Shown: positions 6,201 through 64,000 of the stretch, piece by piece
Layout: the number at the start of each line of letters is the position of its first letter
Position numbering within the stretch: the stretch's first letter is position 1
Origin: Octopus vulgaris
Taxonomy: Eukaryota
Direction: 5' to 3'
NCBI GenBank assembly: GCA_951406725.2
Contig: OX597841.1
Span: 12,214,001-12,278,000, forward strand
DNA: 64,000 nucleotides
Position numbers and translations under genes: made by a program
Notes under the pieces: model-generated
Told to the model about the DNA's origin: nothing
Seen by the model: only the letters and a program-made list of their open reading frames with translations
Databases searched by the model: none

Positions 6201-6718
6201 ACTCATCCCCTCCAGGGTTAATAGAATAAAGTACTAGTCAAATACTAGGGTTATCTAAGCCCCTATAAAGGGTGATGGGCACTGCCTTCTCTACCCAGAA
6301 TCCAAAAAGAACAGAGTAATGAAATACCTCAGAGTGTGTATAGCGACCATCAACTATAGCGGCAGGGTTCAAGTTACCATCAAAACTTGCTGCCATCTTG
6401 TGGCATTTTAATAAACTTCCAGTCACTAATTTAACAACATCTTGATTGCGATTGAGTTCATAAAGGATGCCCTGAAAACAGAAAATAACAAAAAGGTCTT
6501 GGATTGGGTTTCCTTCTTCTTTTATGGAAATAATGGGGCAGAGGGTAAATTCAGAATTATTGTTGCAGTATAAAGTTATACAGAACACACATATATGTGT
6601 ATGAAAACCCACTAGAATGGGAGCAAGCGCTAATCCGAATGATATGATATATATGTAAAAAATGTAATATATAAATAAATATCTACAAATATGAACCATC
6701 TGATCTGATTACCTCAAT

Positions 6719-6780
<62 letters not shown>

Positions 6781-16800: not shown

Positions 16801-19800
16801 GTGGGAGCAGCATGAAATTGATGAGTGTTTTTTGTTTGAGTGAATTGGATATAACGAGGGATTTCAAAAGAGAGACAGAATTAACGAGATGAAACAAAAA
16901 CTAATGACATGGTGATGGTGGCAGTGAAACGCCACCCCTTCTATTTACCTGCATCTTCCAAATCATTGTCAGTTCATCCAAAGACAGTTTGGATCCTAAA
17001 AAGTCCACAATACCTTTCACTTTATCACAATATTGAGCTTGATCAATGTTTCCTGTGAAGAAAAATCAAATAAAAAAAAGTGTTAGATTCTCTCCTGAAA
17101 TAAGACTTAATATGTTTCTGGGGTCAATAAAATAAAGTACCAGTCACGCATAAGGGTCAATGACATTAATAAACACCTCCCCTCAAAACTGCTGTCCTAT
17201 GAACTTAAATTAGAAACAATCATCATCATCATCATCATCATCAAGGCAGTGAGCTGGCAGAATGGTTAGCACACCAGGCAGCATTTCGTCCAGTTTTAGA
17301 TTCTGAGTTAAAATTCCATGTAAGTCAATCTTTGCTTTCGTCCTTTCTGAGTCAACAAAACAAAAATCAGTTAGTATTGGGTTTAATGTAACTGACTTCA
17401 CCCTCCACCCCAATATTTCAGGCCTTGTGCCTCTACAGTAGAAAGGATTCTTCTTCTTCTTCTGGCAGAATTATTAGCATTTCCAAGCAAAAAGGCTGAA
17501 TGGCATTTCTACTGGTTCTTTACGTTCTAAGTTCAAATCCTACTGAGCTTAACCTTGCCTTTCATCTTTTCTGGGGTCAATAAAATGAAGTATCAGATGA
17601 AATTAGCCATGATAGTGTAGTCTTAAATACATTTATGTTGGAAAAAATGAGATAGTCATGGCTGGAACACCTTTGATCATGGGTCTGTTAGATAAAAACT
17701 GATCTAGGGCTAAACAACATCAACAACAAGGAAGGCCATATTAGATAATGTAGTTCTAGATACACTTATGTCTGAATAAAAGATGGAATGGTCATGGCTG
17801 GGTTGAAGAACAAGCAAAGACAGGGAACTTACCCTCTAGGGCGATGGCCAGCACACGTTTGTCAACCAAAAAGTTGAGAATTCTGTCCGAGTGAATGGCA
17901 GTCTTTAACTTACTGACTGTGGCATCGTCAATGAGTTTGGAGACCTGGAAAGGTAAGCAGAGGTAAGAACAGACTGTACCGGGGTTAGAGTCATGGTTGG
18001 GTTGTCAGGGTGTGTAGAGCTGTCACCTGAGATAGAGATAATAATACATCTACAGCAGCATGACATACTTACTTTTAATAATTACAAATGTAAATTAAGT
18101 AATATATGAATATATATTTAAATACACAAAAAGATGTTTCTGAAATTCACAGAAAGTTGAAAAGATTTAAATATAAAAAAAAACAACAAAAATACATTCC
18201 AGTTTAATGATTTTTTCCCCCCCTTCAAATGTCGTATTGCCACAGGAAGTGCTCTGATGAACTTCTTCCCTTAATTCCAGATCACTTTGGGCCATCTCAC
18301 CTGACTCAAAGCTCGTCTTCATGCAGATGCTGTTGTGCTTCCATGAATTATGAAAAATTTTTATTTGGTCATGGCCTCTTTCTCCAAACTGCCAGACTTT
18401 AAAACTCTCCCCCATCTCATTGTTTTCCTTCTCCTTTCAAGTCTTAACTAAATTCATTCCTTTCATCTTAATTTCTCCTTCTTTAGAGTCCCTTACACTA
18501 CATGGCTTCTTGCCTCTTCAGGACTTTTTTTATAAAATAAAAAAAAACACTCAGGTGTTTAGAAGGCCAACTGAGATCTTCATCAGGTCATCCTCAGCAC
18601 TTTATATGGCAAAACTCAGGGCTTCAGAATGCTACCATCACCAGGCCATGGGATCTAAACTTCTCTTCTTACTCCACACCGCAACTTGTATCAGAAGAAC
18701 CATCCCCAACATAACATTTATTTTTTTAAATCCTTATTTCTGAACTACAATAAATGATCTTCTAAAAAGGCTGTCATTTCTCTCATTATAAATTTCATTT
18801 ATTTGAATCAAATTAAAGAACAAAAGAATTTTAAGCTTCAGGTCAGCGGTTCCCACTGATTTAGACTTCAAAACACACTGGACAGAAAAGCAGTTCACAT
18901 GCGAAGATTCAGTTAAAAATTGTTTTAAAGTTTAAAATTTCATTAAAAAGAAATATAAAACTACACCTAGCATTGCTTTTTTAATGTCTGTGTGACAGAA
19001 ACTTACAATTATTATCATAATTATTTTAATTATTAAAATCATAATTTAAGGCATTAACAAGTCCTTAAATGACATTTGTCATTTTAGGACTTGTTAATGC
19101 CTTAAATTATTATTTTAATAATAATAAAAAAAAAGGCATTGGAGGGGGCAATGCATACCTTGCACACAGATAAATTTTTTTGCAAATTATAGTCTGGCTT
19201 ACAATGTGTTGCTTACAATGTGTTGCTTACAATGTGTTGCTTACAATGTGTTGCTTACAATGTGTTGCTTACAATGTGTTGCTTACAATGTGTTGCTTAC
19301 AATGTGTTGCTTACAATGTGTTGCTTACAATGTGTTGCTTAACCCATGCTTTTTAATTGAACTGAATTCATTTTTTTTTTTTAAGAATCACAATTATAGG
19401 CATTTATACTCCGGTGAAATTAAGAATTCAACTCATAAATAAACGAAACCCTTAAACCCATCAGTGTACACACACACAGAGTTGCATATCTATGTATGTA
19501 TTTATGTATGTTTGAAGATAAACCATTTCAAGCCACTCACCCAATAATTATTTCTGCCAAATTTGGTAAAAATCCATTTGACTGTTTTCCAGTAATTTTG
19601 CAAACACACAAAGATAAACAACCCTGCTTTTGCTTATGTGTGCAGGGAAATAATAATTATAATGATAATTTTAATAATAATCTTTAGCAGACCTTGTGAT
19701 GCACCATGGTGTCACATTGTATCAGTTATGAAAAACACCCTCAGACTATTGTGGAAAATTTAATGTGTTACCTCTTTTAGGGAATTCATTTTGGCATTAA

Positions 19801-31236: not shown

Positions 31237-34066
31237 GGGAGAGAGAGAGAGACGTTTTCGATCTAGTTTGGATTCTTTGTCTTCAAATTTGGATTTTTCA
31301 ATTGATGCTCAAGAGAGTTAAACTACATCAGCCCACCAATTGATATCTGAAAAGTTCGATGAAATAACTCATGAACACTGCTATAGCTTATATTTACGGT
31401 CTGAACAAGGGGAGATAATAGAAAAGAATCATTCGTTTATTATCTCCCCTAGTTCAGACCAGTCGACGACGTAAATATGACAGAAGCTATAGCAGTGTTC
31501 ATGAGTTATTTCATCGAACTTTTCAGATACCAATTGGTGGCCTCTACTGGACGAGTTAGATAAGATAGACATGTATTCCCTTACAAAGAATCCAAATTGG
31601 ATCGAAAACATCTATATATAGGCACAGGAGTGGCTGTGTGGTAAGTAGCTTGTTTACCAACCACATGGTTCCGGGTTCAGTCCCACTGTGTGGGACCTTG
31701 GGCAAGAGTCTTCTACTATAACCTCGGGCCGACCAAAGCCTTGTGAGTGGATTTGGTAGACGGAAACTGAAAGAAGCCTGTCGTATATATGTATATATAT
31801 GTATGTGTATGTGTGTGTGTTTGTGTTTGTCCCCCTAGCATTGCTTGACAACCGATGCTGGTGTGTTTATGTCCCCGTCACTTAGCAGTTCGGCAAAAGA
31901 GACCGATAGAATAAGTACTGGGCTTACAAAGAATAAGTCCCGGGTCGAGTTGCTCGATTAAAAGGCGGTGCTCCAGCATGGCCGCAGTCAAATGACTGAA
32001 ACAATTAAAAGAGTAAAAGAGTAAGAGTATATATATATAGAAAAAGTCTTTTTACGTTTCGAGCCTACACTCTTCTACAGAAAGGGACACAGAAAAAACA
32101 AGGAGAGAAAAAATGTGTGTAGTGGCTAACGATCTATCATATATACATGTCCTCATTTGTAAAGTGAATAACTAATCTAACATTATAATATCCGTAAGTT
32201 GATGAACAAACTAAATTTGTTTCTCCATTTTCTTATTTATATATATATATATACATATATATCATCATCATCATTTAACATCCGCTTTCCATGCTAGCAT
32301 GAGTTGGACGATTTGACTGAGGTCTGGCGAACCAGACTCCAATCTGATCTGGCAGAGTTTCTACAGCTGGACGCCAACCACTCCGAGAGTGTAGCGGGTG
32401 CTTTTACATGCCACCGGCACGAAGGCCAGTTTGGTGGTACTAACAACGGCCACGTCCAAATGGTGCTTTTTACGTGCAACCTGCACAGGAGCCGGTGCAG
32501 CAGCACTGGCAACGTCTTCGCTCGAATGTTTCACGTGCCACCAGCACAAGTGTTAGTAAGGCAACGTGTTAACGATCATGCTCGAATGGTGTACTTAATA
32601 TGGTGTGTTCAAATGGTGTGCATATATATATGTATATATATATACATATATTAGAAGGTTTGGAGATGATGTACAGGTATTATATATTTACAGATATTTA
32701 TTAGTATGTTACATGTTCTTATACATGGACAGGACATTCGAAGCCTTCAATCTTCAGTCAAGAACCGGATCATCCTCACAATTTCGGCTGAATAATCTTG
32801 AGATCACTCCGATCCGGCCAGCCCCAAGGAAAAACTAAGTTACGAGCATTAGATTTCTTGGAAAAAGGATTGAATGGATACGAAACAAGGACAGAAAAAC
32901 GGACGATGCCACATGAATATAAATACAAAAAACAATAATAGTAAAAACAGGACAAAAACAGCAGGTGTCTTACGACTATAGACAGTACAACTTAGTTTAG
33001 CTGGCGTATTTGGAAGAAAATGCCTTTTTTGGCAGATGAAGGCTGGTTGACCAGCGGTCACGTGAGAGGAGAAGAGAGAGAGAAAAAGAGGGACAAAGGC
33101 ACCAAAGGAAGGAGAAGAGAGAGAAAGAAGGAATTAAAGAGGGGAGAAGAAAGAGAGCGTGCCAAGGATTGGCTTGGCGACAGAATCAGTGAGGTGCAAA
33201 GTGAGAAAGACAGAGAAATATGAGAGAGTGGGGGAAGAGGAGACCAAAGAATCAGAAGCAAGAAAAGAGAAAAGGAGGAGGAGAAGAGAGAGAGAGAGAG
33301 AAAGAGACAGATCAAAGTGGAGTGCAAAGTGTGAAAGGCAGAGAAATGTAGGAGAGAGAGACAGTGTTATAGAGTCGTACCAAATTTAAAGAAATATGTA
33401 CTTACATACAAGACCAAAAGGGGTACGGGCGCCGCTATATAAATTATATGTAGAAAAATACAAACTGGGACAAGAACGTAAAACATTTAGAAAACGATAC
33501 AAAAAACACGGACGGGACATTCGAAGCCTTCAATCTTCAGTCAAGAACCGGATCGTCCTCGCAATTTCGGCTGATATGTATATATATATATATATTTTTT
33601 TTCTAGTTTCAGCTCAGAGCTGCGCCCATGCTGATGCACCGCTGTTTTGTGCTACACTGTTATTACGAAGAACCTCGTCTAATATGTGGCACTTGGTGAA
33701 GAATGGAGTTTGATATAGCTACTCTCATTTGCACCTCTTGCTGTGAGGTAGGTTCATTTGGGACTCTCGACAGGAAGATGTCCAGCTTTAATTTTAGTCC
33801 AACCCATGCTAGCATGGAAAGCGGACGTTAAATGATGATGATATATATACATATATATATATATACTCTTTTACTTGCTTCAGTCATTTGACTGCGGCCA
33901 TGCTGGAGCACCGCCTTTAGTCGAGCAAATCGACCCCGGAACTTATTCTTTGTAAGCCCAGTACTTATTCTATCGGTCTCTTTTGCCAAACCGCTAAGTG
34001 ACGGGGATGTAAACACACAAGCATCGGTTGTCAGGCAATACTAGGGGGACAAACACAGACACACAA

Positions 34067-44767: not shown

Positions 44768-46560
44768 AAGAGAGTGAGCAGAGAGAAACAACTTAGATTT
44801 CTCTGTTATTACATAGCACTGCCCCTGCCCCTGCCAACATCCTGGGTTTATATTTATAACTTGTAGATAGCATCTGGTGGTGGAGGGAGTGGTTGAGCAG
44901 CAGCAGCAGATGATGATGATGATGGTAGTTGTTAGATGCTCTGCCCCCTCACCATCACATGTACTCTTAGGTCAATGACTTAGACATTCTATAAATATTG
45001 TTGTTCTTGGTGGTGTATATGATCCAACAGACTTATTACAATTAAAAGCAACCCAGCCATGACAATCCAGTCATTTTCACAGGTATCTAGGAAATTCATT
45101 ATCCAGGACTGTGTTTACTTCACAAAACTGGCATGGTTGTGATTCGAGGGAGACTGGACTGTTATTTCTAGTGAAACAGCCACAGACAAGCCCTCCCTCT
45201 CCCCTTCATTGGCTTATGTTCAACAAGTGGGTTTCAAATGCATTAATGCTAAAGTGTGTGTAAACAAACACAGGAGGAATTACAACAGTGTTTCGTGGTC
45301 TGCTACCACAACAGCTCCTTTATAGGATCCAGTTAGCTCAAGACATCGTCAGGAGGAACCACGTCCAGTTTCGGGCCCCTATTCCTCTACCGTTTTGACG
45401 TGGTGGGGCCCCTATTTCGGAGGTGTCTTCAGCTCTGGTGTTGGGTGCATGTCTTCTTTCTTCTGTTCCCTGGCCTCTTCGATGTATCGTCAGCGAGTGT
45501 CAGCCGGTGACTGACTGTCTTGTCAAATTTCTCCCTTTAAATACTTGCCGCATAGGCTCCAGCAGGCAGCCCCAGCAAGTTGTCACATGACACTGTCTCA
45601 CCTTAACTGACTAGTGAAGGCACATAGTTTTAGCCCACGCATTCTCTAAACGACCGTCACCTGTCAGTCAGCTTGTCTCACCTAATGATGTTATTTCCTG
45701 TCGGCGTGTTTAAGACTTTCAAGCCATTTTCGGTCTTCCCGCTTCAGCCATATATAGAATCTGGCTTTTTCGACCGCCTCCTGTACTCTCCTTATTAGGT
45801 CACGCAGCTCGAGGCTAGAAAAAACAAATCTTCTTTTGAAAAGCGCTGACATTTTCCTTTCAATGAAGCCTCTAGCCCCCACTGCCAGGTGATAATATTC
45901 GACATTCCATCCCTGTTCTCTGCATTCTTCGATTAGCTTTTCATACCTCTTCTCCTTTCGTTCCTCTGCATTGCCAGTGTTCTCTTCCCAAGGTACTGTT
46001 AGTTCTAGTAAAATTCTCATTCTCTGGTCTCTGTTCCATAGAACTAAATCCGGTCTTTTTGTTGTTTTTATTAGTGGAAATATTACTTGTCTTTCCAAGT
46101 CCGTGGCCACCTCCCAGTATCCCTTCATCTTTCGTCTATCTCATATACTATACTTGTATGCCTGGTTTTATATCCTTTTACCTCCTTGTGGAAGTATACT
46201 TTCCTGCACTTTTCTACTTTTGGGTACTCTCCCCGATTGTACCTCTCGATCTTATCCTTGAGTGCTGCGCTTATGATGCCGAGGACTTGATTATGCTGAC
46301 ATGTATATCTTTCTAGTGCTAGTCGGCAACCTGACAGAACATGTCTAACCATCACTTTCTCTCCACATCTACACACATCGGTTGTTTTTATGTTCCACCG
46401 GAGTAAGTTCGCCGGTGAGGGTAGAACGTCAAAGGTAGACTTGATCAAGAAGGATGTTCTTGCTTGTTCCCAAGCCCAAAGTTCCTTCCATGATATTCTG
46501 CGGTTGATCACATATTCCTCCCGCACGTGCACACTCATATTTTATTTCTTTATCACTTTA

Positions 46561-62933: not shown

Positions 62934-63304
62934 AAATTAACAGAATAAGATAAAAATCCAAGGCTGTGAAAGATTTCAGAACATTTATAAAGAGAAGGTC
63001 TTACAGCTGTTTCTGGGATATTTCATATATCCCTTCATCGAAGACAGTGTGAGAAAATGGTTAAGCAATAGTTATTCTAGATAAGATATGAAATAGAGAG
63101 TGAAGTGGAGGAATGAAAATCTCATGTTTATTTTCATTCCTCCACTTCATATCTTATCTAGAATAACTATTGCTTAACCATTTTCTCGCACCATCTCCGA
63201 TGAAGGGATATACAAAATATCCCAGAAACAGCTGTAAAACTTTCTCTTTATAAATGTTCTGAAATCTTTCACAGCCTTGGATTTTTATCTCATTCTGTTA
63301 ATTT
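62934..63304. repeat. Long fold-back (about 370 bp) in (TA)n context, Penelope-terminus-like
   Basis: Arms of about 180 bp are near-perfect reverse complements around a 9-nt loop at 63121-63129. Confidence 0.92.
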
Positions 63305-63332: not shown

Positions 63333-64000
63333 AGTGGCGTATGTACACTTTGTTCTCTTATATGTAAGTACACATTTTACAAAATCTTCTATCAGCCCTT
63401 TCACACTTATTCATTCATTCCACCCTTCGTTCTTTTGTTCCCCTCGCTCACATTTCTTTGCCTTCTCTCCTTACTCACTTTCCCTCCACTTCTTACTTCA
63501 CTGTATCCCTGTCAATTTTTCTCGCCCCTCCTTAATTCTTTTGTTCCTCTGCTTCTATTTTTCTCTCTCTTCTCTTCCCACATGACCGATCAGCCAGCCT
63601 GCGCTCTCTCTTTCTTGGTCTGACCACGGTCCAACCAACATCAATATTCTTCCCCGTGTTTGTGAAATTTTTGTATCTTTGCCTTAAGGCTTCATTTCCA
63701 TACATGCCAGCTTAATTCAATTCGTCCTTAGTCAAAAGACACCTGTTGTTATGTCCTGTTATTATTTCTATTGTATTTATATTTGTGTAACATTGGCCGT
63801 TTTTTCCATCCTTGTTTTCGTATACATTTGCTGCTTTCTTCCAAGGAATCTAATGCTCTTAGCTTAGTTCTTCCTTGGGGCTGGCCAGATTGGAGCAATC
63901 TCAAGAATAATCAGCCAAAATTGCAAGGATAATCTGGTTCTTGACTGAAGATAGAAAACTTCGAATGACCCATCCTTGTTTTCTTTGTATTGTCTATCTC
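63333..64000 (+). mobile_element. Second copy of the 32650-33575 family; runs off the right edge
   Basis: Colinear similarity to the reverse complement of 32725-33440, including the CT-rich block and the hammerhead-type motif. Confidence 0.75.
63885..63956 (+). ncRNA. Decayed pseudoknotted hammerhead (GAAA box changed to AAAA)
   Basis: CCAGAUU gga GCAAU-C^UCAAGAA ua AUCAG CC AAAAUUGC aaggau AAUCUGG UUCUUGA CUGAAGA UAGAA. Confidence 0.55.

Follow-up and report, generated by a model that had tools for sequence, protein, structure and literature searches.

Insertions of a non-coding octopus retroelement begin at or just after the predicted cleavage site of a permuted hammerhead motif

In a 64,000-nucleotide stretch of Octopus vulgaris DNA (hereafter, the window) we found a copy of a (TA)n-targeted, non-coding tandem retroelement whose genomic copies have their 5' ends at the predicted cleavage site of a permuted hammerhead motif or a few nucleotides beyond it. 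From comparisons of these copies we consider it likely, with a probability of roughly 0.82, that self-cleavage of tandem transcripts makes the 5' end of the RNA template from which they are synthesized. (Features are listed in Table 1. Within the element, which reads on the minus strand, q+1 denotes the first base of AUCAGCC, at 33575 in the window and at 32792 in the internal copy, q0 is counted, and the predicted cut falls between q-9 and q-8.)

Table 1. Features of the window, with predicted pairings of the internal motif (hammerhead numbering follows standard usage)
Feature	Position	Strand	Remarks
Non-coding retroelement copy	32723..33575	-	one 783-nt unit plus ~69 nt of a second unit
5'-truncated motif copy	33506..33575	-	starts at q+1, 9 nt past the predicted cut; 2 nt (AT) common to the flanking (TA)n run
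(TA)n target run, 5' junction	33576..33601	.	
(TA)n run, 3' side	32622..32654	.	
Internally deleted 3' tail of another (TA)n-associated repeat	32655..32725	-	in place of the family's own 70-nt tail; 639 candidates, 68 matches
Complete internal motif	32735..32877	-	predicted pairings and core
Helix X	5' strand 32877-32867 with 3' strand 32745-32735	-	predicted
Hairpin Y	32861-32824	-	predicted
Stem II	5' strand 32823-32818 with 3' strand 32791-32786	-	predicted, 6 bp
P0	32817-32811 with 32771-32765	-	predicted, 7 bp
Stem III	32807-32803 with 32782-32778	-	predicted, 5 bp
Stem I	32801-32796 with 32763-32758	-	predicted, 6 bp
Core strands	GAAA 32785-32782; CUGAAGA 32757-32751	-	
Predicted cleavage site AUC^U	32801..32802	-	C at 32802; 3' product begins at 32801 = q-8
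Unrelated repeat family, same wiring	45329..45438	-	H17 at 45388, CUGA at 45352; 3' UTR of an RT element
Older, diverged family copy	63696..64000	+	78% over 296 nt, with weaker similarity extending to 63316; AAAA in place of GAAA, through decay

The copy in the window begins at 33575 on the minus strand with AUCAGCC-GAAAUUGC, immediately after a (TA)n run, and carries a terminal duplication in which 33506-33574 repeats 32723-32791 (69 nt, 94% identity, spacing 783). The upstream copy of the motif retains the GAAA and CUGAAGA strands and is without the cleavage triplet. All of this agrees with a preliminary description of the window, which had also put the 5' end about 10 nt downstream of the predicted cut; the distance is 9 nt (the equivalent of 32792 as against 32802^32801). 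That description had bounded the element at 32650-33575 and given it a unit of about 780 nt. The start at 33575 stands, but the end at 32650 does not: homology to the family ends at ~32723, the normal family 3' end lies ~70 nt further on, and the rest belongs to another repeat. Because of this foreign tail the window copy is a chimera, made via template switching or later deletion. Similarly, the unit measures 783 nt here but is not constant, being 830-832 nt in a tandem array and 857 nt in the family majority, from which the window copy differs by 23 mismatches and 74 gap positions. Note that the repeat that supplied the fused tail is also found at 6659-6755 in the window and at L431-L449; it is (TA)n-associated, and head-to-head inverted copies of it are frequent.

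In the host genome a 28-nt motif pattern for the family has at least 2,061 exact matches (a control pattern has none), and a DNA search with the family gave 4,859 candidates, the best 40 of which were scored. The 3' end of the family is fixed: 82 of 91 copies stop at q122-141, ~148 nt past the cut, where an internal TA tract passes into flanking (TA)n or (CA)n sequence, and short copies of ~148 nt are the commonest single class. Insertion into (TA)n, 5' truncation, and tandem and inverted copies are all present in the family (inversions were flagged at L039, L065, L106 and L107). The longest sense ATG frame in the family unit is 44 aa. On C6 (L029, L030; C6:85539783-85545743) approximately seven near-identical units with intact motifs form a tandem array whose longest ATG frames are 44 and 81 aa; the five units that were compared measure 830-832 nt (one is deleted to 655) and differ from one another by 0-4 mismatches. 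This array is a candidate source locus or rolling-circle product. The second, older family copy is not confined to the window; past the edge it leads into an end rich in TA (L390). (A long, near-perfect inverted repeat at 62934-63304, with 165-nt arms of 93% identity, adjoins that copy, and a perfect 14-nt minisatellite of 10.4 copies lies at 19197-19341.)

The hammerhead core is complete in the internal copy of the motif (CUGAAGA, GAAA and AUC, which conforms to NUH), and stems I, II and III lie in register with it. Across 90 family copies, 96-98% of the cells of these stems are paired, as are 97-98% of those of two further helices, X (8 bp) and Y (5 bp), and 91.6% of those of P0 (92-98% over all helices). 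In the window copy stem III of the internal motif is probably weakened, because it contains three G-U pairs. The blocks occur in the order cleavage strand, GAAA strand, CUGAAGA strand (S, G, C), and stem II forms 6 bp with a strand upstream of P0 and 0 bp directly downstream of CUGAAGA. (An alternative 4-bp stem II, downstream after a 5-nt insert, is possible in the family; by eye, none is present in the Naiad examples described below.) The position of the cut (AUC^UCAAGA) was derived from the structure alone, that is, from the full core together with stems I, II, III and P0, according to the rules for the hammerhead core (PMC10085705).

Subfamily variants mostly preserve pairs by one-sided change (32 in stem III, 22 in Y). 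Double-sided covariation is nearly absent among the 90 copies, being limited to four cells in P0, a helix in which a common variant breaks a pair in 29 of the 90. The main structural support is for this reason the comparison across families with unrelated stems. A strict descriptor found two motifs in the 64-kb window, the internal one and an unrelated one at 45388, and had no match in 30 Markov shuffles of 64 kb each. MFE folding leaves pseudoknots out of the model and is therefore uninformative here; its z scores were 0.63 (internal motif) and -1.62 (motif at 45.4 kb). An Rfam scan of the window returned no ribozyme or hammerhead match at E values up to 1, the only matches being microsatellite-driven ones to miRNAs. 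Assignment to hammerhead types I, II or III failed on their circularly permuted strand order, the order here being S, G, C. The minimal type I hammerhead and the twister, pistol, hairpin and HDV ribozymes were dropped by eye, since pairings or the order expected from their consensus features are missing.

The type-SGC hammerhead described by Eckert et al. 2023 (PMC10085705) resembles the motif in its block order (cleavage site, GAAA, CUGAnGA), in its short link between stems I and II, and in an extra helix that joins the other sides of these stems and to which P0 would be equivalent. (Here and below, comparisons refer to the accessible parts of the cited papers.) The difference is that CUGAnGA and the stem II strand are assumed to be inseparable in type SGC, whereas here no stem II strand directly follows CUGAnGA, block C is not intact, and helices X and Y are predicted to bridge the gap. 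With its stem II 5' strand upstream, the motif is a permutation variant of type SGC and not a strict member. Type-SGC motifs were, according to the accessible text, not found in known organisms' genomes, with the exception of one GCS candidate (PMC10085705). We found no print report of the present arrangement in the literature on type-SGC hammerheads or on Naiad and Penelope hammerheads, in a search that left subscription journals mostly uncovered.

We compared the 5' ends of family copies with the predicted cut in three samples. The first, not chosen by 5' end, comprised 92 of the first 100 C1 matches listed (90 loci, 91 distinct copies). Copies dropped off at 2.07% per nt in q-8..+12 (31 ends in 1,499 nt at risk; n = 91), compared to 0.26% per nt in q-125..-9 (14 in 5,433) and 0.43% per nt in q13..28 (6 in 1,401), and the rate in this zone differs from those upstream (p = 1.5e-11) and downstream (p = 5e-5). 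(Note that rates were computed only down to q-125 because subfamily divergence partly accounts for what look like 5' ends at q-521 and around q-154.) Within 20 nt on either side of the cut, 29 ends fell after it and 2 before it. Read-through is common, with 54 of the 85 copies that reach the zone continuing past the predicted cut. The idea, put forward in the preliminary description, that the ribozyme cuts transcripts to unit length is not supported in that form; copies run from the cut to the TA tract ~148 nt downstream, or they read through.

The second sample consisted of (TA)n-flanked copies anchored at q99, collected with two patterns that have 468 and 654 matches (100 listed for each); keeping the range common to both lists (C1, C2, and C3 to 84 Mb) gave 124 sites among the matches listed. 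Note that the first two samples, which cover C1-C3, overlap at some C1 sites and thus lack full independence. Within 20 nt on either side of the cut, 74 ends lay after it and 4 before it (n = 124, binomial p = 1e-17). By interval, 7 ends were located in q-49..-9, 71 in q-8..+8 and 41 in q13..98. Twelve copies start exactly at q-8, where 0.37 would be expected, and q-9 to q-11 account for 2 starts in total. The predicted cut is the sharp upstream limit of the family's 5' ends, and the pile-up at or just after the cut that had been anticipated is present. A further proposal, that the template began at the cut and that 9-10 nt were lost on insertion, is in keeping with this limit and with the exact starts (12 of 124), but a loss of ~9 nt is only one among several preferred results. 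The tallest peaks, at q-3, q-1 and q+1 (10, 10 and 17 ends), lie on AT or TA dinucleotides, and the 9-nt loss therefore looks like trimming to microhomology.

Two further families in the host genome share the wiring and have unrelated stem sequences. A motif derived from Naiad_Ovul has 127 exact matches; among the 69 that were examined there was no pile-up, with 20 ends within -46..+28, 3 of them within 17 nt on each side and none at the cut. (In these copies the register tried for X was poor, at 64%, and Y held, at 92%.) The second family, in which helix X holds, is that of the 45.4 kb motif, where 45329-46541 (minus strand) is the 3' end of an RT element; homologues of this element carry PF00078, the host genome contains 1,553 candidates, and it is not (TA)n-targeted. 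We take it to be an element of the HERO type with a restriction-like endonuclease. Pfam and PDB searches of the frames at 45.7-46.5 kb gave nothing significant, and a pattern that enriches for truncated copies of this family revealed no clear pile-up (by eye, 1 of 11 matches starts at the cut). A candidate explanation for the difference is that autonomous elements may mainly copy their own uncut RNA, whereas the non-coding family may be copied in trans.

By eye, the wiring is present in 9 of 53 published Naiad consensus 3' ends (for most, the last 330-420 characters, in which deeper motifs would be missed). These are Naiad_Ovul, Obim, Amil, Aacu, Anas, 3_Chem, 2_Movir, Bfor (stem I of 2 bp) and Esco (stem II weak), which represent approximately six independent lineages, including a ctenophore, cnidarians and cephalopods; Naiad_Smim resembles, by eye, an intact SGC motif. 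A further repeat family (L047:971-1040 and L075:2236-2330, both plus strand) has the SGC order with its stem II strand downstream, as is canonical, and L075 has a 10-bp P0 with its 5' strand upstream; this family possibly represents an intermediate wiring. For still other Naiad ends we use the labels HDV-like, twister-like and long-insert hammerhead, by which we mean presumed resemblances. Viewed by eye in the supplement of PMC8557442, the 3' ends of several molluscs and hemichordates look HDV-like, that of Naiad-1_Movir looks twister-like, and those of nematodes have hammerhead cores with a long insert.

Four other explanations for the pile-up were weighed. If the hammerhead were inactive or incidental, the template 5' end could be set by a transcription start site that coincides with q-8 by chance; it would likewise produce a sharp edge, and the two families that share the fold and have no pile-up speak in its favour. 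Nevertheless, the edge agrees to the base with the cut position that structure predicts, out of ~150 nt that were scanned, and we regard a coincidental start site as improbable. Alternatively, (TA)n microhomology, or stalling of the reverse transcriptase at structure, might generate the pile-up with no RNA end involved, as the three tallest peaks (37 ends, the window copy among them) could suggest. However, positions matched for TA microhomology predict 6.8 ends in q-8..+8 as against the 71 observed, the upstream AT sites at q-11 and q-20 have 1 end and 0 ends, and the enrichment is present in every microhomology class; a stall at a helix would moreover not be expected, with the strands 3' of the zone already copied. 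Thus, this explanation is very improbable, and for short copies it is largely refuted. That the commonest single class is short, at ~148 nt, might also reflect a single founder, truncated at q-8 and serving as a short SINE-like master whose descendants form the pile-up, but the 12 exact starts carry five marker variants, all of which are found in long copies too, and we give this scenario very little credence. Equally hard to credit is a protein nuclease that cuts the folded RNA at the predicted site: a protein may be involved, given that the Poseidon hammerhead cleaved only with protein present, but that cleavage was still RNA-catalysed (PMC11167929), and the full hammerhead core is conserved across unrelated families.

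The third sample bears on long copies like that in the window. It consisted of 26 near-full copies among the best 40 of 4,859 candidates (the window copy, one unanchored locus and two array loci were left out) and was ranked by score, hence downstream ends are under-sampled. Seven ends fell in q-8..+12 (345 nt). The 922 nt upstream had 9 (p = 0.12) and the 1,434 nt downstream had 6; for the zone against both sides, p = 0.016. None of the 26 ends is at q-8 and four are at q+1. A junction pattern for long copies had 8 matches, of which 6 were new and 4 lay in the zone by eye. The enrichment is suggestive only for long copies, and the preliminary prediction accordingly holds strongly for the family and more weakly for the long copy in the window. 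In a separate observation, at L275 (near 1470) and at L206 a different segment of the element itself is fused no more than 2 nt from the predicted cut, which points to template jumps at a cleaved end.

Self-cleavage by the predicted hammerhead could account for these patterns as follows. Tandem transcripts would be cleaved, and a reverse transcriptase borrowed in trans from a Penelope-like, probably Naiad, element would use nicked (TA)n DNA to prime on the internal AU tract, and would run off at the cleaved RNA end; the cDNA would then anneal to the target via AT microhomology, with the loss of 0-16 nt. A monomer extending from cut to cut and primed at q140 gives only ~148 nt, and longer copies would therefore need uncut multimers or circles, that is, templates in which the junction was never cut or was religated. 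On this view the window copy is a read-through product that was halted at the following upstream cut or at that site's AT hotspot, which is the weakest step of the scheme. A search for an autonomous partner with a Naiad C-terminal peptide gave 136 matches, and the 50 loci examined had two short family fragments nearby and no common 3' end.

The family resembles the Naiads (Craig et al. 2021, PMC8557442) in its (TA)n targets, heavy 5' truncation, partial tandems and inverted 5' pieces. It differs in that it encodes no protein, and hence no ORF with an N-terminal GIY-YIG and an RT, and has no sequence in common with the Naiad loci examined and no link to loci with Naiad ORFs. (In the accessible text of that paper no canonical hammerhead is reported for Naiads, only 'core' or 'half_core' notes, and the role of hammerheads in Penelope-like elements is called unclear.) With non-LTR retrozymes (PMC7229834; bioRxiv 10.64898/2026.07.22.740005) it shares non-coding tandem repeats, one hammerhead per unit and a proposed Penelope-like mobilisation; those elements have a type I hammerhead and units of 150-450 bp, whereas here the motif is permuted and the units are 783-857 nt. 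R2 (PMC3774820) is similar in that the position of a ribozyme cut (here a predicted one) determines where genomic 5' junctions fall, with variation from chance microhomology, but R2 is an autonomous element with an HDV-like ribozyme and an rDNA target. The family works like R2 or a retrozyme, yet fails the type I and size tests of non-LTR retrozymes. The anole Poseidon PAc (PMC11167929) is similar in reverse transcription from an internal site and in its AT-rich targets; in that element the site where synthesis starts lacks homology to the target, and the main template is uncut RNA, whereas here the 3' TA tract matches the target. Note that for anole Poseidon, as far as the accessible text goes, insertion in vitro did not depend on hammerhead cleavage and the RNA-seq had no reads with an end at the cut (PMC11167929), which counts against a role for cleavage in the octopus family.

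We regard the base-precise insertion edge at the predicted cut as indirect evidence from living cells that the template end is made by cleavage in one family at least. With moderate confidence we suggest, from sequence comparison, that a core-opened, non-circularly permuted hammerhead cleaves in animal cells and has left a base-precise footprint in thousands of insertions, that it may be the ribozyme thought to be missing from part of the Naiad clade, that it would support a class of long (~830 nt) retrozymes, and that the same fold would be present in an unrelated RT element. The wiring contradicts the assumed indivisibility of the CUGAnGA block, and because the block is split here, descriptor searches probably overlook such ribozymes in animal genomes.
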